Part shown: positions 2,811-56,162 of the stretch, one piece after another
Layout of the letters: every line of letters begins with the position of its first letter
Numbering within the stretch: position 1 is the first letter of the stretch
Source: a phage
NCBI GenBank assembly: GCA_036436775.1
Contig: GCA_036436775.1_3676.1
Reading direction: 5' to 3' (one strand)
Length of the DNA: 64,000 bases
Notes under the pieces: model-generated
Seen by the model: the letters and a program-made list of their open reading frames with translations, nothing else
What the model was told of the DNA's origin: nothing
Database searches by the model: none
Program-made: the position numbers and the translations under genes

Positions 2811-3020
2811 GGGGGAGACAACCACCGGGGATGGGCGCTGCATAAAATGAGAACGGTTATCATTATCATTTAAAAGTTTATGCAAAAAATCCTTGCTCTC
2901 TTTGTCCTGTGTGATACTATAATAACAAGCCGGGGCAACAGGGGCCGGGAGACAACCACCGGGCCTGCCCGTTATTCTGCAAACGAGAATGATTATCATT
3001 CAAAATTCTAAATGAGAACT
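2811..3020. repeat. two ~70 bp direct repeats, each carrying a Fur-box-like sequence
   Basis: Units share GAGACAACCACCGGG...GAGAA-G-TTATCATT; GAGAACGGTTATCATTATC (2849-2867) and GAGAATGATTATCATTCAA (2985-3003) match the 19 bp Fur box at 16/19 and 14/19. Confidence 0.4.
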
Positions 3021-3038
3021 CCTCGCATTTAATAAATT

Positions 3039-3056
3039 TAATTAGCATGCTAATTA
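3039..3056. promoter_or_regulatory. 18 bp perfect palindrome, candidate protein-binding site
   Basis: TAATTAGCATGCTAATTA is its own reverse complement; sits in AT-rich noncoding DNA. Confidence 0.3.
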
Positions 3057-7088: not shown

Positions 7089-7119
7089 TGCAAAAATGCC
7101 CCACCCTTTCGGGCAGGGC
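7089..7119 (-). terminator. rho-independent terminator (hairpin family A, copy 1)
   Basis: On the minus strand GCCCTGCCCGAAAGGGTGGGGC is followed by ATTTTTGCA; 15 nt after the stop of the upstream CDS. Confidence 0.6.
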
Positions 7120-17511: not shown

Positions 17512-17542
17512 ATGCAAAAAGCCCCACCCTTTCGGGCAGGGC
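17512..17542 (-). terminator. rho-independent terminator (hairpin family A, copy 2)
   Basis: Same hairpin as 7098-7119, followed on the minus strand by CTTTTTGCATT. Confidence 0.6.
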
Positions 17543-24211: not shown

Positions 24212-24240
24212 TCCAAATAGAAAATCCCCGCCGAAGCGGG
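24212..24240 (-). terminator. rho-independent terminator (hairpin family B, copy 1)
   Basis: Minus strand CCCCGCTTCGGCGGGG (UUCG-type loop) followed by ATTTTCTATTT. Confidence 0.55.
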
Positions 24241-24253
24241 GTGGTCTTAGAAA

Positions 24254-26524: not shown

Positions 26525-26782
26525 TCAGTCCACCTCTTCTTCTCGTTGTAGTTCAAGGTACCCGTAGGTCTGGACATCTTGAAGGGTGTGGAACTCCCCA
26601 TCTGCCGCTAAGGCACGAACAACTTGGCACAAAACCTTATGAGGAACTTCATCCAGACCCAGATTCAGTGCAGGGAACACCTTATCTAAGTCAACAAAAT
26701 AAACGAACTGTAGCTCACCAGCTTCAAAAGGTGTATCTTCAATAAACATCTTCTCGGCATTAGTCAAGATCTGCACTTTCAT
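26525..26782 (-). CDS. hypothetical protein (85 aa)
   Basis: ORF in array. Confidence 0.45.
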   Translation of the reverse strand: MKVQILTNAEKMFIEDTPFEAGELQFVYFVDLDKVFPALNLGLDEVPHKVLCQVVRALAADGEFHTLQDVQTYGYLELQREEEVD

Positions 26783-27138
26783 TATTCTACCTCCTCTTCT
26801 TTTTCTTCGGCATTAGTTTCATGGCTACCCCACTCTGGAGTTTCCACCTCGATAGTAAACTCACGCACTACACGGTAATTGCCCATGAAGCGCTCCACTT
26901 CGTCAAGGCTTACGGAGAAGCCATTGGCAACCAGGTCTGCAGCACCCTCTTCTACCAGGTAGTCCAGATTGGCTTCCAAAGCTTCAGGCTCAAACCCTGT
27001 TAATGCAATCAGATAACCTTCCCCTTCATCAGGGAGGACAATACATCCCAACTGATTTTCTTTGAAAAGGCAGTGACCATCATTGTTGATTGGGTGTTCA
27101 TTGCAGTAAATAGCTGCACGATAAGTAACTTTAGACAT
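26782..27138 (-). CDS. hypothetical protein (118 aa) starting MSKVTYRA inside the 27 bp inverted repeat
   Basis: ATG at 27138 with RBS AAGGAGA; its first 27 nt are identical, in inverted orientation, to 28979-29005. Confidence 0.5.
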   Translation of the reverse strand: MSKVTYRAAIYCNEHPINNDGHCLFKENQLGCIVLPDEGEGYLIALTGFEPEALEANLDYLVEEGAADLVANGFSVSLDEVERFMGNYRVVREFTIEVETPEWGSHETNAEEKEEEVE

Positions 27139-27141
27139 CGG
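27115..27141. repeat. 27 bp perfect inverted repeat, left copy
   Basis: Reverse complement of 27115-27141 is CCGATGTCTAAAGTTACTTATCGTGCA, identical to 28979-29005. Confidence 0.85.
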
Positions 27142-27151
27142 CAAGGTCTCC

Positions 27152-27430
27152 TTAGGCAATTGTCATTTTACATTCTTGAAATTTTAGCACAAGACGGTGA
27201 TTGTGTCTAGTGTCTAAAAAGGTTTTTTCAACCATCAGGCACACGGTATAACCGTCCATCTTGTTGACAACAAAATCTCCAGGGTGAGGGAGGATGTCCC
27301 CCGGATTGGGGAAACATAGTCCACTCAGAAAGGCATCGTCAGTGGTGGACTTAATAGATTTCCACACATTGTCTGCCTGAACATGTTCACCGACGTAATA
27401 TACATTACCACATGCCTTCATCATAGTCAA
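27152..27430 (-). CDS. hypothetical protein (92 aa)
   Basis: ORF in array. Confidence 0.45.
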   Translation of the reverse strand: MTMMKACGNVYYVGEHVQADNVWKSIKSTTDDAFLSGLCFPNPGDILPHPGDFVVNKMDGYTVCLMVEKTFLDTRHNHRLVLKFQECKMTIA

Positions 27431-28326
27431 ACCCTCGCATAAATTAAACTTGTATCAGTATACTTCTTTAATGGACAGATATCCGGCCCGTAGATGTAGT
27501 CATTGAACACCTCATCTATCCAAAGACTGCTCTTATACCCCATCATCTCCAAGACATCCATCTCTTCTTTAGTGAATTTATCACCGCTCTTGCAAGATGT
27601 CAATACCTCATTCTGTACTCTTGCTACCTCGAAGCGGTTATTGGCAATATCACTATTGGCGATCAAATACTCACCCAAAGGGTGTGCAGCATCAAAGATG
27701 CACAAAGGTCGGTTGACGTAATAGTCCCCGGGTGTGTAGAAATTATTCAGGTCCTTCACCAGAACATTCTTATCCGTCACCTCATTTATAACATCATGCA
27801 TACCGCACATCTTTATATGCTTGAGGATTCCATCTCCCATCACAAAATAAAAACTTGCTGAGATACCCTCGACATAGATCTTACTAGATCCGTTGTAGTT
27901 GTATTTTACGCGAATACTCACGGGGGTTTTTCCTGTCGCGTTAGCCATCATCCAAAGAAATGGCAGCTCATACTTCTCCTCTGAGGAAACAAAAGGTGAA
28001 GTTGCCAGAGATCGAAAACCTCCAGAGAAGTTGAAAGTTACAGAACCGCTCCGGCGGTATGATACTGCGTATTCTACTTTTATATCAACATATCCGTTGG
28101 AGTAAGTATGCCCTCCATTATCAAGGTATGTCCACTTATCAGACCCGGATACCAATCTACGCTCAATAACCTTCATCACTACAGGAATTAGCGGGTTGGT
28201 ACAAACCGCTTTTGAAGTAGCTTTAGCATCTAAAGCCTCGTAAATTGCAGAAAGGATGTCCCCAGCTGAAAGATTTGTTGTTATGTCCTGTTTCCACCGC
28301 GTACTAAAACTGTTAAGATTTGCCAT
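27427..28326 (-). CDS. hypothetical protein (299 aa), first gene of the leftward operon
   Basis: ATG at 28326 with AGGAG RBS, directly downstream of the minus-strand promoter. Confidence 0.55.
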   Translation of the reverse strand: MANLNSFSTRWKQDITTNLSAGDILSAIYEALDAKATSKAVCTNPLIPVVMKVIERRLVSGSDKWTYLDNGGHTYSNGYVDIKVEYAVSYRRSGSVTFNFSGGFRSLATSPFVSSEEKYELPFLWMMANATGKTPVSIRVKYNYNGSSKIYVEGISASFYFVMGDGILKHIKMCGMHDVINEVTDKNVLVKDLNNFYTPGDYYVNRPLCIFDAAHPLGEYLIANSDIANNRFEVARVQNEVLTSCKSGDKFTKEEMDVLEMMGYKSSLWIDEVFNDYIYGPDICPLKKYTDTSLIYARV

Positions 28327-28366
28327 GAGGGGGTGCTCCTATGTTAGTTTTATTTCTAATGGGTGC

Positions 28367-28395
28367 ACTATATCGGAGATTCAGAGTAAAGTCAA
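28367..28395 (-). promoter_or_regulatory. sigma70-like promoter, leftward member of divergent pair
   Basis: Minus strand reads TTGACT (28390-28395), 17 nt spacer, TATAGT (28367-28372). Confidence 0.5.
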
Positions 28396-28408
28396 CACGT
28401 TTTTGATG

Positions 28409-28437
28409 TTGACATCTATTGAAACAATTGATACGAT
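28409..28437 (+). promoter_or_regulatory. sigma70-like promoter, rightward member of divergent pair
   Basis: TTGACA (28409-28414), 17 nt spacer, TACGAT (28432-28437); -35 overlaps palindrome GTCAACA-N-TGTTGAC. Confidence 0.5.
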
Positions 28438-28468
28438 TTCTTCACTTACAGAGCACGAGAGACAACTC

Positions 28469-29446
28469 ATGAATCTTGAAAAATATTATACACCAGAAGA
28501 GTTAGAGCGCCTGCTCAAAAAATATAGACGCAAACAGAATAATGCACGGAAACGAGATATAGAGTTCGACCTGTCATGGGAAGAATACCTCCTATTTGGT
28601 AAAAAACTTTTAGGAGATGGAGTATGCGACTATACCCTTATACCTTTTGACATGCACACAGATGAAAACGGGCTGGGAAATCCTTTCTACCCATCTCTGG
28701 AGCGGATAGATGATGAAGGTCCTTATGCGGTTGATAACTGTTGTGTGGTGGGATTGAGATGCAACTCTCTAAAGGACTGTCTGGTAGATAAAAAGACTGC
28801 AGTCTCGATTAAAGACGAAACTGATCGAAAAATTGTCCAGCAGATGATGCTCCACCTGAGCGAAGAGCGTATGGAGAAATTGAAAGGTGATTATACTTTT
28901 GAAGATTTCATCTTGCAATATGGAACGGAAGAGGATAAACTAGCACTCTTTGACGAAGAAGAGGAGGAAGATATGCTACCGATGTCTAAAGTTACTTATC
29001 GTGCACCCAAGAAGCACATTTCCGACATTGTAAACGAGCCTATCACAGAAGAGATTGAAGAAATGACGCAACAGGTGCATGAAGAGGAAAAAGAGACTCA
29101 GTGGGTCGAAGAGGAGCTTACAGAAGAGGTTCCTGCACTACCTGATGATGTTGAGATTGCCAAAGCTTACACTTTCTATTGTCAAGCGTTCTACGATGTA
29201 GGTATGAAAGTTGATCTGTCGTTCAGCCAATTTAAGAGTTCGTATATTCGCAAATGCTGTGCTTTAACTGGTGAACGTCTTGGAGCTGGACTTAAACCCC
29301 TGTTGGTGACCGACTGGAATAAAGGTTTCACTAAAGGAAACTTTATGGTAGTATCTCCAATTATGGAGAAAGCTATGACAGATCTCATGAAGACCACCCG
29401 CATGACAATGACCGAGTTGGCAGGTATTTTCAAACACGTTAAATAA
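28469..29446 (+). CDS. HNH/His-Me-finger endonuclease-like domain fused in frame to a C-terminal domain that begins MSKVTYRA
   Basis: SLERIDDEGPYAVDNCCVVGLRCNSLK resembles the (S/L)DRID..GY..N...C..CN..K signature of phage HNH-type endonucleases; start moved to ATG 28469 downstream of the promoter; internal ATG 28982 with RBS GAGGAGGA lies in the 27 bp repeat. Confidence 0.4.
   Translation: MNLEKYYTPEELERLLKKYRRKQNNARKRDIEFDLSWEEYLLFGKKLLGDGVCDYTLIPFDMHTDENGLGNPFYPSLERIDDEGPYAVDNCCVVGLRCNSLKDCLVDKKTAVSIKDETDRKIVQQMMLHLSEERMEKLKGDYTFEDFILQYGTEEDKLALFDEEEEEDMLPMSKVTYRAPKKHISDIVNEPITEEIEEMTQQVHEEEKETQWVEEELTEEVPALPDDVEIAKAYTFYCQAFYDVGMKVDLSFSQFKSSYIRKCCALTGERLGAGLKPLLVTDWNKGFTKGNFMVVSPIMEKAMTDLMKTTRMTMTELAGIFKHVK
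28979..29005. repeat. 27 bp perfect inverted repeat, right copy
   Basis: CCGATGTCTAAAGTTACTTATCGTGCA, identical to the reverse complement of 27115-27141. Confidence 0.85.
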
Positions 29447-29450
29447 TGAC

Positions 29451-29467
29451 AGGGGCCAATGGCCCCT
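29451..29467 (+). promoter_or_regulatory. intergenic hairpin between the HNH-like ORF and the VWA gene (attenuator or RNA structure)
   Basis: AGGGGCC-AAT-GGCCCCT with no clear U-tract; overlaps the ORF-track ATG at 29459. Confidence 0.3.
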
Positions 29468-29479
29468 TCTGGAGTTTTA

Positions 29480-30940
29480 ATGGATAGCAGAAGTTCAGAA
29501 ATCATTGCCTCACAGAAAGATGATGCCTTGAGAATGTTGCAGGCTGCACGTATGTATCTCCTTGAAAAGCTGCCGTTTTATGGCACACTACTGTCAGGGT
29601 TGCAGTTCGTAGAAAACCACACATGGTGCTCCACCATGGCAACCGACCATAAACGCATCTATTACAGTCCTGAGTTCATTATGGGATTGGCTGATGAACG
29701 CAAGGCTATTCTTAAGGCTTCTCTGACTGACGAGCAGTTTGAGATGGCTGAAGTTTTCTATTCCCCAAAATCTGTGAAAGAGGTGGCCTTCCTTCTGTCA
29801 CATGAGGTGGGGCATATTATCTGTGATCACCTAGTCCGTGGTAAAAGCTTTGAGCCGGAACTGTTCAATATTGCTTGTGATCACGTTATCAACACAGGTC
29901 TTGTGGTTGACTTTAGCAAGCCTCCTTGTGTTTTCTTCCCGAAGGGGAAAAGCACTACGTTCGTGAAAGGTAAACCTTTTGGCTTCTTAGCCAGCTGCTA
30001 CTGCGATATGAAGTTTCATGGATGGATTGCTGAGAACGTTTATGCAGTTCTTGATAAGCAAAGAGATCAGAATAACGGTAAAAGTAAGAACGGTAAAGGT
30101 GAGAACTCTCAAGGGGATAAGCGACAAACAGATGATCACATGAGTGGGAACGGTGGCACCAGTGATGATCTTGGAAAAGCTATGGGGTATGATCAGCCAC
30201 AACCTGTAATCAGCCAATCTGATAAAGATCAGGCCATGCAGGACTCTGGTGATATGCTGGAGGCAGCAATGCAAGCGTCCGGAGGCCGTTGCCCTGAGGC
30301 GGTGCGTGAGTTTGTCAAGAACAGAGGTAAGCCTGTAATCAACTATATAGACATCATTAAGCAACGCATGTTGTCTAAACGAAAGGCTGAACTGACCTAC
30401 AGAAAACCTGGTCGCCGATCTGGGTCTTTGACCAGCACAATGCGAAAAGTTGGGGCTATAAACAAGAACCAGCACGTTATTGTTCCTGGTCGTAATCCGG
30501 AAAACACTATAGATATTGTGGTGGCTTTAGACGTTTCTGGCTCGATCTCTCAAAGAACTTTAAAGAAAATGTTCAATGAAATCACCGGATTGTGCAATCT
30601 GTATAAAGAGTTTAAGGTTACAATGTTCTGTTGGTCAACTGAGGTTGGAGAGGTTAAAGTATACACTCGCGGCAACATAGACGAGATGATTAACTATGAG
30701 GTCCACTCAACATGGGGCACAACAGCTGCTTGCGTGTTCGAGTATCTGGATGCCAACATACCGAATGCAAAAGATGTCATCGTCCTGACCGACCTATACT
30801 TTGAGCATAACTTTGAACAAAAGGCTGTTGACAACAAGTGGAAAAAGTACGATACTTTATGGGTTCTCACTGAAGGGTATAATAAAAATTATATCCCGAG
30901 CTTTGGGAAAACTGTGGAATTAATCGAGTACGCTAAGTAA
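29480..30940 (+). CDS. HExxH metallopeptidase-like + von Willebrand factor A (VWA) domain protein
   Basis: LLSHEVGHIICDHL (HExxH) in the N-terminal half; MIDAS-type VVALDVSGSIS in the C-terminal half; start moved to ATG 29480 (RBS GGAG). Confidence 0.55.
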   Translation: MDSRSSEIIASQKDDALRMLQAARMYLLEKLPFYGTLLSGLQFVENHTWCSTMATDHKRIYYSPEFIMGLADERKAILKASLTDEQFEMAEVFYSPKSVKEVAFLLSHEVGHIICDHLVRGKSFEPELFNIACDHVINTGLVVDFSKPPCVFFPKGKSTTFVKGKPFGFLASCYCDMKFHGWIAENVYAVLDKQRDQNNGKSKNGKGENSQGDKRQTDDHMSGNGGTSDDLGKAMGYDQPQPVISQSDKDQAMQDSGDMLEAAMQASGGRCPEAVREFVKNRGKPVINYIDIIKQRMLSKRKAELTYRKPGRRSGSLTSTMRKVGAINKNQHVIVPGRNPENTIDIVVALDVSGSISQRTLKKMFNEITGLCNLYKEFKVTMFCWSTEVGEVKVYTRGNIDEMINYEVHSTWGTTAACVFEYLDANIPNAKDVIVLTDLYFEHNFEQKAVDNKWKKYDTLWVLTEGYNKNYIPSFGKTVELIEYAK

Positions 30941-34810: not shown

Positions 34811-35218
34811 ATGGATAATCTTACAAATATAAAAGTCGAAATTGTTAAGCTAAAATTCTTAGGCTTTCGAGACCCCAGCTCTATAACAGCTATAATCATG
34901 GATACCCACTTTACAGCAGGCAAGGAATACACTGCCGTCCGTTATACTTGCGGGGATCATAAATCTGCCTACAGTGTTAATACAAACCTCGGTGAGGGAT
35001 ATTTTATCCGTGATATTACGGATCATTTGTGGGGAATGTGGGAGTTGGTGAAGGAAGAGGGTAACTCACTCCCCAAAGAGATTTGGGTGCATACCTTCCA
35101 CACAGGTAAGTTTGGAGGCACGGAACATAAATCTATTCACTACGATGAAGAAAGCGCCCTCAAGCAACAAGCTGTTCTTGGCGGGTCTGTAGAAAAATTT
35201 ATTAAATGCGAGGACTGA
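34811..35218 (+). CDS. hypothetical protein (135 aa)
   Basis: ORF in plus-strand operon. Confidence 0.5.
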   Translation: MDNLTNIKVEIVKLKFLGFRDPSSITAIIMDTHFTAGKEYTAVRYTCGDHKSAYSVNTNLGEGYFIRDITDHLWGMWELVKEEGNSLPKEIWVHTFHTGKFGGTEHKSIHYDEESALKQQAVLGGSVEKFIKCED

Positions 35219-50557: not shown

Positions 50558-50626
50558 GTCACTCCTCCGGTATGAAAATCTCTACAAGGTATTTTACCAA
50601 ATTTTGTAACAATAGTCAATCTGAGC

Positions 50627-50653
50627 ATAAAAATAAACCCCGCCGAAGCGGGG
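50627..50653 (-). terminator. rho-independent terminator (hairpin family B, copy 2)
   Basis: Minus strand CCCCGCTTCGGCGGGG followed by TTTATTTTTAT, just downstream of the J-like gene stop. Confidence 0.55.
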
Positions 50654-56131: not shown

Positions 56132-56162
56132 ATAAACAAAAAGCCCCCGCCGAAGCGAGGGC
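56132..56162 (-). terminator. rho-independent terminator (hairpin family B, variant)
   Basis: Minus strand GCCCTCGCTTCGGCGGGGGC followed by TTTTTGTTT. Confidence 0.5.

Follow-up and report, generated by a model that had tools for sequence, protein, structure and literature searches.

Gene content of the locus

The window (the whole stretch of DNA analyzed, 64,000 nucleotides in length) belongs to an rV5-like coliphage (Vequintavirus, Murica/MiataMamis type). The features of the locus are listed below; the terms donor and recipient refer to the direction of copying deduced from sequence comparison.

26782..27138, minus strand: gene 8 homologue, 118 aa, PHROG 12908
27115..27141, minus strand: donor arm, spanning the start of the gene 8 homologue (ATG plus codons 2-8, MSKVTYRA) and the 3 nt of leader directly before it; exact match
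27152..27424, minus strand: gene 9 homologue, 90 aa, PHROG 12847, within the segment bracketed by the arms
27427..28326, minus strand: gene 10 homologue, 299 aa, PHROG 12338
28367..28437, both strands: predicted early promoter region, bidirectional, separating genes 10 and 11
28469..29446, plus strand: gene 11 homologue, two-domain Srd-like protein, 325 aa
28955..29134, plus strand: acidic, variable inter-domain linker of gp11 (residues ~163-222), recipient of the patch
28979..29005, plus strand: recipient arm, the copied patch in the gp11 linker (codons P-M-S-K-V-T-Y-R-A), found in 28 of 118 records

Searches against Pfam yielded zero matches for gp8, gp9, gp10, and gp11, and searches against NCBIfam yielded zero matches for gp8, gp10, and gp11; the label “putative alpha 1-3 fucosyltransferase” attached to gp10 finds no support in either database. 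In the region between genes 10 and 11, the predicted promoter on the minus strand is TTGACT-17-TATAGT, and the predicted promoter on the plus strand is TTGACA-17-TACGAT with a TG. Sources supporting this region include the rV5 genome paper (PMC3606486); among records of relatives, promoter P11 is annotated in rV5, and promoters are predicted in Gotham.

The 27-nt sequence CCGATGTCTAAAGTTACTTATCGTGCA has a single plus-strand site (28979-29005) and a single minus-strand site (27115-27141), both with 0 mismatches, and no additional copies occur in the window at a tolerance of up to 3 mismatches. The original prediction had described a perfect 27-nt inverted repeat whose left copy starts the gene at 26782-27138 (minus strand), whose right copy is internal to the ORF at 28469-29446 (plus strand), and which encodes PMSKVTYRA in both places; our analysis confirmed the exact match, both placements, and the shared reading frame. 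The arms are 100% complementary and separated by 1837 nt (~1.84 kb). This is the longest perfect inverted repeat of the 64 kb window and lies far above chance: random sequence of 64 kb is expected to contain ~1e-7 perfect inverted repeats of at least 27 nt, and two matches to the sequence were recovered in 0 of 100 shuffles. Most relatives have a longer match of 29 nt (TACCG...), with the copied tract also taking in positions 28977-28978 (TA). It is shorter in the window because G replaces A at position 27143 in the gene 8 leader; this G is shared with Logan contig L017, and the relatives carry A.

Identity and domain structure of gp11

The gp11 sequence matched PHROG 3118, labeled “HNH endonuclease,” at 7e-112, and it also matched Srd, sigma-70-decoy, and endonuclease VII PHROGs at 1e-10 to 1e-13; there were no matches in Pfam and NCBIfam (to E 0.1) or among PDB sequences (to E 1). 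The identity of its domains therefore rests on the PHROG matches and on the rV5 genome paper, whose authors consider gp11 a probable Srd homologue (PMC3606486). The earlier description of this ORF as HNH-like agrees with the PHROG 3118 match but is not borne out by Pfam, NCBIfam, or PDB, and it has to be set beside the matches to Srd-type PHROGs. Database labels for gp11 include “anti-sigma factor,” “HNH endonuclease,” and “anti-termination protein,” all of which are putative. T4 Srd is described as binding RNase E and stimulating host mRNA decay (Qi et al. 2015, cited in PMC13232886). The likeness to T4 Srd lies in the PHROG matches and the assessment of the rV5 authors; the difference is that gp11, the function of which is putative, carries an additional C-terminal domain attached through the acidic linker.

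Full-length gp11 (≥80% coverage) is present in 208 of 213 matching phage records with conserved synteny, and the two-domain architecture is kept down to 37-39% identity in other Vequintavirinae. A duplicated fold common to the N- and C-terminal domains is a tentative impression; BLASTP between them was not significant (E = 1.5). A search for gp11 homologues returned only 21 close relatives, and the AlphaFold2 model (from a 9-sequence alignment) was poor overall (mean pLDDT 49, pTM 0.27), with a pLDDT of ~30 in the linker; the acidic linker is probably disordered. The linker is 75-87% identical to that of the window in rV5, Pr121LW, and FV3, and the regions flanking it are mostly 90-99% identical in rV5 and Pr121LW.

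Distribution of the two copies among relatives

We compared the locus across ~118 related phage records. The gene 8 copy of the 27-29 nt is present in ~108 Vequintavirus records, ~80 of which lack a second copy, and it was confirmed directly in rV5, FV3, Pr121LW, and the IMG/VR contigs L003 and L004. The linker copy occurs in only 28 of the 118 records; the remaining 90 have an alternative conserved linker (...PMQDFKNFMADRAANKHI...), which is common to rV5, FV3, Pr121LW, L003, and L004 and is still recognizable as PAQELREFMEKRAEKHI in outgroups at 62-68% identity (L005-L008, P0015, and P0016). Donor and ancestral linker thus co-occur in the five genomes in which the donor was directly confirmed. 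The ancestral allele carries QDFKNFMADRAAN, and the derived allele is the MSKVTYRAP linker, in which the patch replaces the conserved ancestral ...CAGGATTTTAAAAATTTCATGGCTG... of gp11. No IMG/VR genome carried the derived allele; contigs from that database served for the ancestral and outgroup states.

Because ~108 records have the gene 8 copy and just 28 have the one in the linker, polarity is shown at the level of sequence, with gene 8 as donor and the gp11 linker as recipient. The reverse polarity, in which the start of gene 8 would have been copied from the linker, was rejected on the distribution among records and outgroups. In a BLASTP comparison of gp8 with gp11, MSKVTYRA is the sole shared stretch, and all synonymous positions are identical across the 27-29 nt of both arms. 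Since synonymous sites are identical and the two proteins are otherwise unrelated, the repeat is a copy made at the DNA level; convergence on the peptide is ruled out.

The two arms decay independently. Alma has two substitutions in the donor arm and none in the linker copy, and in ECP32 the two arms disagree at the edges. The donor arm is also conserved equally in genomes without a partner arm, and together these observations indicate no selection for pairing of the arms. ECP32 is 99% identical to the window in the linker region and 85-95% identical elsewhere; therefore, the allele is mosaic.

Junctions of the copied tract

When the rV5-type linker is compared with the start of gene 8, the sole matches are ACCGATG (7 nt) and ATCGTGCAGC (10 nt). 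Between these two microhomologies lie 25 nt in the linker and 13 nt in gene 8, and the two intervening sequences are unrelated. The derived allele has the 13 nt of gene 8 where the 25 nt stood; this net change of -12 nt preserves the frame and alters the peptide from ...SPMQDFKNFMADRAAN... to ...LPMSKVTYRAP.... In the L003-type pairing (FV3/L003-type linker with the L003 donor leader), the corresponding microhomologies are ACCAATG and ATCGTG. What would be expected of a templated microindel is present at this locus: the donor accounts for the tract, the donor pre-exists, and microhomology is found at both junctions. Donor and recipient are not within hairpin range of each other, as 1837 nt lie between the arms.

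Some details extend beyond the arms. A Ser-to-Leu codon change (TCA to CTA) adjoins the arm on the left and is donor-like: the donor leader has T at -5 in all haplotypes and C at -6 in those of the L003/ECP32 type. Judged by these bases, the Ser-to-Leu change is donor-derived as well. The two substitutions immediately to the right of the patch (GCC AAC to CCC AAG) match neither parent, and extra mutations or error-prone synthesis are needed to account for them. None of the loci read had a donor haplotype matching a 30-nt tract exactly (CCTACCGATG leader); with a gene 8 leader of the form ...GGCCTACCGATG..., a single step would account for such a tract as well as for the Ser-to-Leu change. QDFKNFM, the peptide that was replaced, stays conserved at identities as low as ~62%, so the change may not be strictly neutral.

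Alternative explanations

The original prediction had proposed inversion of the bracketed segment, like G/C-segment switches. In such a phase-variable switch, comparable to the Mu G or P1 C segment, the arms would recombine and flip genes 9 and 10, the bidirectional promoter, and the N-terminal domain of gp11. The geometry is suggestive: two identical arms in inverted orientation share a reading frame, the Shine-Dalgarno sequence of gene 8 lies inside the segment, and both recombinant products would be in frame. Arms of 27-29 bp also fall within the size range of gix/hix-type sites. Inversion would yield a fusion of the N-terminal domain of gp11 to gp8, together with a free gp11 C-terminal domain. 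The remark that inversion gives in-frame fusions is thus correct, but these products are in frame because the patch itself is in frame, and this does not speak for a function. The arrangement of the genomes speaks against a switch. Each of the 116 full-length relatives, all 28 with both arms among them, aligns collinearly with the window as one BLAST piece, and 120 of 120 records have one collinear place each; the comparison that had been suggested, a search of related genomes for inversion of 27142-28978, revealed none, with the linker arm itself confined to 28 of 118. Contigs L017 and L018 (Logan and ENA) show the standard arrangement, as does the one Logan contig found by an exact-protein look-up of gp10. 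The inversion junction had 0 matches in JGI/ENA metagenome contigs, a search of low power in which the normal junction had only 1 match. Neither the outgroups nor 90 of the 118 records have the right arm, although genes 9-11 are present; the arms drift separately (Alma and ECP32); and flipping the segment would disrupt gp11, a protein conserved throughout the subfamily. The annotation of the syntenic 64 kb of MiataMamis, in which many small ORFs are left unannotated, lists no recombinase, invertase, or integrase; neighboring ORFs have no recombinase-type Pfam domains; and the words integrase, recombinase, and invert are absent from the rV5 genome paper (PMC3606486). Flanking inverted repeats are therefore the one hallmark of an invertible segment seen here, a nearby recombinase, both orientations, and conserved sites being absent from the material compared, and we consider a switch of this kind very unlikely. 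It is likewise highly improbable that the 27-29 bp arms serve as a substrate on which homologous recombination, of phage or host, occasionally flips the 1.84 kb segment to produce an N-domain::gp8 subpopulation. In such a subpopulation, gp8 would be joined in frame to the Srd-like N-terminal domain, and the C-terminal domain of gp11 would be expressed separately from the gene 8 ribosome-binding site; if this were true, the flipping would be an incipient form of phase variation, independent of a recombinase, in a protein that acts early in host takeover.

Three other explanations concern the patch itself. It had been suggested that the repeat is a recombination junction or a conversion footprint left by a homing endonuclease. 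On the homing reading, gp11 would be a mobile HNH enzyme and the patch a co-conversion tract from its invasion. “HNH endonuclease” is the label of gp11 in some records and that of PHROG 3118, and the protein has weak similarity to endonuclease VII-type PHROGs. The suggestion was right in spirit, as the repeat is a short copied tract, but homing as its cause is unsupported because gp11 is fixed, syntenic, and full-length in 208 phage records. Rather than being sporadic, as a homing gene would be, it keeps its position in every Vequintavirus record as well as in other genera of the Vequintavirinae; HNH matches are absent in Pfam and NCBIfam, and the rV5 authors and PHROG matches indicate an Srd-like protein. 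The patch also sits in gp11's own linker and derives from an unrelated neighboring gene, unlike co-conversion of flanking exons, and we regard homing as extremely improbable. The 27-mer could instead be a common cis-regulatory RNA element (a repressor or small RNA site) or an imported start for the gp11 C-terminal domain. Divergent transcription does place an identical 27-nt sense sequence on both mRNAs, the sequence spans the genuine translation start of gene 8, and the gp11 copy contains an in-frame ATG with GAGGAGG 14 nt upstream (5 nt upstream of the preceding in-frame ATG). However, the arm stops short of the gene 8 Shine-Dalgarno sequence (AAGGAG), which was not copied, GAGGAGG is Glu-Glu coding sequence found also in unpatched alleles, 90 of 118 relatives manage without the element, and the arms are not co-maintained; a regulatory role is very unlikely. 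An assembly artefact or chance match has a negligible probability and was refuted by replication in independent genomes: the same arrangement appears in 28 independently sequenced records and in Logan and ENA assemblies, and both the ~1e-7 expectation and the shuffles argue against coincidence.

Origin of the repeat and comparison with known systems

We conclude that the repeat is very probably the product of a single historical templated microindel and not a working element. In the ancestor of the Murica-type gp11 allele, synthesis across the linker would have been briefly templated by the start of gene 8, 1.84 kb away on the opposite strand. This could have happened by a switch of the nascent strand to the new template or by annealing of a single-stranded gene 8 fragment at the fork, that is, by SPDIR (short-patch double illegitimate recombination). 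Entry and exit would have taken place at the pre-existing microhomologies ACCGATG and ATCGTGCAGC, so that 25 nt of linker were exchanged for 13 nt of gene 8 with the loss of 12 nt and the frame kept. The change may have been tolerated in a poorly modeled, probably disordered acidic linker, and the allele may then have spread among co-infecting Vequintaviruses by ordinary homologous recombination. We infer the enzymatic route (template switch or SPDIR) from the footprint, and near-neutrality of the patch is likewise what we infer.

Quasipalindrome template switching has been described in E. coli and in coding sequences (PMC7202029, PMC8604942); in this process, known from E. coli, yeast, and T4 rII, imperfect inverted repeats become perfect by copying the other arm. 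The present locus resembles it in that a short reverse-complement tract was taken from nearby, the switch points lie in pre-existing microhomology, and the outcome is a longer perfect inverted repeat with a clustered multinucleotide coding change. It differs in that the event is deduced from phylogeny and that the arms are 1.84 kb apart, as opposed to the usual tens to hundreds of bp; at this spacing an intrastrand hairpin is unlikely, so the switch would have had to cross the fork or reach a sister molecule. In SPDIR, ectopic single strands anneal at microhomologies and give rise to microindels of 3 to ~100 bp (bioRxiv 10.1101/2023.11.22.568220). The likeness here is that a few tens of nt were replaced by an ectopic intragenomic tract bounded by (extended) microhomologies, independently of distance and orientation and with a net change in length. 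SPDIR was shown experimentally in a bacterium, at frequencies of ~1e-12 to 1e-13, whereas the present case is a lytic phage with its own polymerase and primase-helicase, and the link would be one of analogy. The 1.84 kb spacing fits SPDIR or a fork-scale switch better than classical quasipalindrome switching. Serine-invertase switches (Mu Gin/G, P1 Cin/C, and Salmonella Hin) share with this locus short inverted repeats around a segment of a few kb (here 1.84 kb) that holds the 5' parts of genes or a promoter, such that inversion would exchange ends in frame. They differ from it in that no invertase or orientation polymorphism was found here, most relatives lack the repeat, and one of the arms falls midway along the gene for the conserved two-domain gp11.

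Implications

The kind of mechanism proposed here is already documented, and the repeat is an ordinary mutational footprint; no consequence for phage biology or annotation is evident, apart from the putative status of the gp11 labels. The locus serves as a caution: an inverted repeat that is long, perfect, and placed around a promoter and the ends of genes can mimic a switch, yet here comparative genomics shows a mutational scar confined to one allele. It would also be a clean natural case of templated multinucleotide mutation in a virulent phage, in which donor and recipient can still be recognized, as can the ancestral state and the microhomology at each junction. On this reading, a single step can replace several codons in a protein linker, and a donor nearly 2 kb away suffices.

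The inverted repeat and its surroundings

The window is from an rV5-like coliphage (genus Vequintavirus). A 3.1 kb stretch surrounding the repeat matched 120 phage records at 90-96% identity, and the ORFs around the repeat are counterparts of rV5 genes 6-12. Sixteen of the similar records (MG0656xx) are titled "Campylobacter phage" (host C. jejuni for 15) despite 92-96% identity with this rV5-like region of an E. coli phage; probably their host labels are wrong, or the phages derive from contaminating coliphage.

Exactly two copies of the 27-mer CCGATGTCTAAAGTTACTTATCGTGCA are present in the window, at 28979-29005 (+) and 27115-27141 (-), each with 0 mismatches; no further copies were found in the window at ≤3 mismatches. 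It forms the longest perfect inverted repeat of the 64 kb, with a chance expectation of ~1e-7, and none of 100 dinucleotide-preserving shuffles contained two matches to it; the repeat is non-random. Both arms read in frame as P-M-S-K-V-T-Y-R-A, exactly as the original prediction described. Recurrence across independent genomes, together with these statistics, excluded an artefact or a chance origin. The features are as follows.

26782-27138, minus strand: 118-aa leftward gene (gene 8), whose start is the left arm (ORF and in-frame reading)
28469-29446, plus strand: 325-aa ORF (gene 11), to which the right arm is internal (ORF and in-frame reading)
Between the arms: the leftward genes 9 and 10, a bidirectional early promoter region and the opening ~170 codons of gene 11
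28395 to 28367, minus strand: sigma-70-like promoter (sequence match)
28409-28437, plus strand: sigma-70-like promoter (sequence match)

The two gene products, gp8 and gp11, have eight residues in common (MSKVTYRA) and nothing beyond. A gene 11 start at 28406, given in certain records and by certain gene callers (MiataMamis; 346-aa Logan/ENA proteins such as P0001 and P0004), overlaps the rightward promoter's -35 box (TTGACA at 28409); the ATG at 28469, which Murica and the majority of records use, is the more plausible start. The start in rV5's own record is later than 28469.

Other repeats were also observed in the window. A second perfect inverted repeat, 20 nt long and AT-rich (TCCTCGCATTTAATAAATTT / AAATTTATTAAATGCGAGGA), lies at 3020-3039 and 35195-35214, 32 kb apart, with a chance expectation of ~0.002 in random sequence. 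Its right copy, which includes an SD-like GAGGA, occupies a small gene's 3' end immediately upstream of the following start; this repeat may represent either a second templated copy or a ribosome-binding region common to the two sites. Among small leftward early ORFs, at 507-569 and 1127-1189, there is a direct repeat of 63 nt (90% identity) that has a GATGGCCCTGGAGTCAAGGCCATC hairpin, and two families of GC-rich terminator-like hairpins recur (CCCCGCCGAAGCGGGG, GCCCCACCCTTTCGGGCAGGGC). Besides 507-569 and 1127-1189, the repeated intergenic modules occupy:

24214-24241, 50626-50653 and 56133-56160
7093-7119 and 17516-17542

Identity of gp11

Database labels for gp11 vary among "anti-sigma factor," "HNH endonuclease," "anti-termination protein" and "type II restriction endonuclease." The protein matched PHROG 3118 at 7e-112, and its N-terminal domain matched Srd, sigma-70-decoy and endonuclease VII PHROGs; searches of Pfam, NCBIfam and PDB sequences gave no match up to the limits searched. 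The rV5 authors regarded gp11 as a probable Srd homologue (PMC3606486), and T4 Srd is described as stimulating RNase E (PMC13232886). Nearby labels vary too: several RefSeq/GenBank records call the downstream DUF2201 metallopeptidase/VWA protein (29459-30940) "HNH endonuclease" or "anti-sigma factor," and the gp10 label "alpha 1-3 fucosyltransferase" is without Pfam or NCBIfam support.

Two conserved domains of gp11 flank an acidic, variable linker, which has a pLDDT of ~30 in an AlphaFold model that is poor overall. Because this two-domain architecture is kept at 37-39% identity in other Vequintavirinae genera, and 208 of 213 matching records cover ≥80% of the protein, gp11 is a vertically inherited, fixed gene rather than a mobile endonuclease.

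Distribution and polarity of the two copies

Only 28 records gave a full-length match to a 76-nt probe centred on the right arm; in ~80 others the match was confined to 27-29 nt at the start of gene 8, on the opposite strand. A second probe, carrying the alternative linker of IMG/VR contig L003, matched at full length in 90 records (rV5, FV3 and Pr121LW among them), and in the 28 records with the linker copy, which we term Murica-type, its right flank alone matched. The gene 8 copy is therefore almost universal, and the linker copy defines one allele, present in ~24% of records.

Protein and DNA alignments gave the alternative linker as ...EEDMSPMQDFKNFMA(D/N)R(A/G)ANKHISD... in rV5, FV3, Pr121LW, L003 and a second IMG/VR contig, L004, and it is recognisable as ...MTPAQELREFMEKRAEKHIKD... 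in outgroup sequences (contigs L005-L008, proteins P0015 and P0016) at 62-68% identity. Since rV5-type genomes and outgroups have this linker in common, the Murica-type ...EEDMLPMSKVTYRAPKKHISD... is derived, with the gene 8 start as donor and the linker as recipient.

The rV5 linker reads GAT ATG TCA CCG ATG CAG GAT TTT AAA AAT TTC ATG GCT GAT CGT GCA GCC AAC, and the gene 8 start reads ...CCT TAC CG ATG TCT AAA GTT ACT TAT CGT GCA GCT ATT. Exact microhomologies between them are ACCGATG (7 nt) and ATCGTGCAGC (10 nt), separated by 25 unrelated nt in the linker versus 13 in gene 8. The derived allele follows gene 8 both between the microhomologies and across them, a net change of -12 nt, in frame. 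In most genomes the match takes in TACCG, the 5 nt upstream of the ATG, so that the repeat is 29 nt long; it is 27 nt in the window and in Logan contig L017 because both have G at position 27143 of the gene 8 leader, where relatives have A. An adjoining Ser-to-Leu codon change (TCA to CTA) is donor-like, and the C at -6 is the leader haplotype of L003 and ECP32; the original copied tract may therefore have been 30 nt. Neither parent templates two substitutions that lie immediately 3' of the tract (GCC AAC to CCC AAG).

Compared with the window, ECP32 has 85-95% identity across most of the region and 99% in the linker, whereas rV5 and Pr121LW reach 95-99% in the flanks and only 75-81% in the linker. 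These opposite patterns indicate mosaic exchange of a ~300 bp segment among Vequintaviruses, and the derived allele spreads by recombination. The linker at ~28900-29190 is a recombination/diversity hot spot with distinct haplotypes.

Alternative explanations

The original prediction proposed an inversion switch resembling those of G/C segments, in which the segment between the arms would flip. That reading is not supported: of its four tested defining features, three (recombinase, orientation polymorphism and site conservation) failed. All 120 records, including the 28 with both arms, were collinear with a single BLAST place, and no inverted arrangement was found among them; the comparison with related genomes that had been proposed as a check thus returned a single orientation, with the right arm absent from most. 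L017 and the ENA gut-metagenome contig L018 have the standard arrangement, and the predicted inversion junction had 0 matches in the metagenome collection, a search of low power in which the normal derived junction occurred in only 1 contig. As the prediction itself had noted, no invertase is evident: phage MiataMamis, which has the same gene coordinates as the window, carries no annotated recombinase in its syntenic 64 kb, and the rV5 paper mentions none (PMC3606486). A homing-endonuclease footprint, also suggested originally, fails too: gp11 does not occur sporadically, and an unrelated gene next to it is the donor.

The arms could instead share an RNA operator, or the linker could have imported an internal start, but we consider this very improbable, as the element is absent from most relatives and the arms drift independently. 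Alma has two substitutions in the gene 8 arm (CCTATGTCTAAAGCT...) and an unchanged linker copy, and the arms of ECP32 differ at their 5' edges, leaving a 24-nt match; the arms are not co-maintained. The gene 8 arm is equally conserved in ~80 genomes that have no partner copy; its conservation reflects its role as translation start and N-terminus, not pairing. The gene 8 Shine-Dalgarno sequence lies outside the copied tract, so the copy did not bring in a complete initiation module. If the arms were occasionally to undergo homologous recombination, a gp11N::gp8 fusion and a free gp11 C-domain would result, both in frame because the arms are identical, share one frame and have the gene 8 ribosome-binding site between them; we regard this as extremely unlikely, and nothing in the 120 collinear records or in the metagenome contigs, which give low power, suggests that it occurs or matters.

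Mechanism and significance

The suggestion of a recombination junction or conversion footprint holds in part: there is a short copied tract, and it is neither a switch nor a homing footprint. A short reverse-complement copy from close by, bordered on either side by microhomology and changing the net length, is the footprint of a templated microindel, for which two routes are documented. One is replication template switching between imperfect inverted repeats, and such quasipalindrome-associated mutations affect coding sequences too (PMC7202029, PMC8604942, PMC7954356). The other is SPDIR (double illegitimate recombination of the short-patch kind), in which an ectopic single strand anneals at fork microhomologies and is incorporated like an Okazaki fragment, producing microindels of 3 to ~100 bp (bioRxiv 10.1101/2023.11.22.568220). 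With the arms 1.84 kb apart, a simple intrastrand hairpin is disfavoured; the distance fits SPDIR, or switching across the fork or onto a sister molecule, routes that the sequence by itself does not separate.

Very probably, a single templated event copied the gene 8 start into the flexible gp11 linker, where the patch would have been tolerated, and the patched allele would then have spread laterally. The repeat is an evolutionary scar that a known mutational process has left in a single allele of an early phage gene. It is no new biological device; it is a tidy, textbook-style example in which donor, ancestral state and microhomologies are all preserved.
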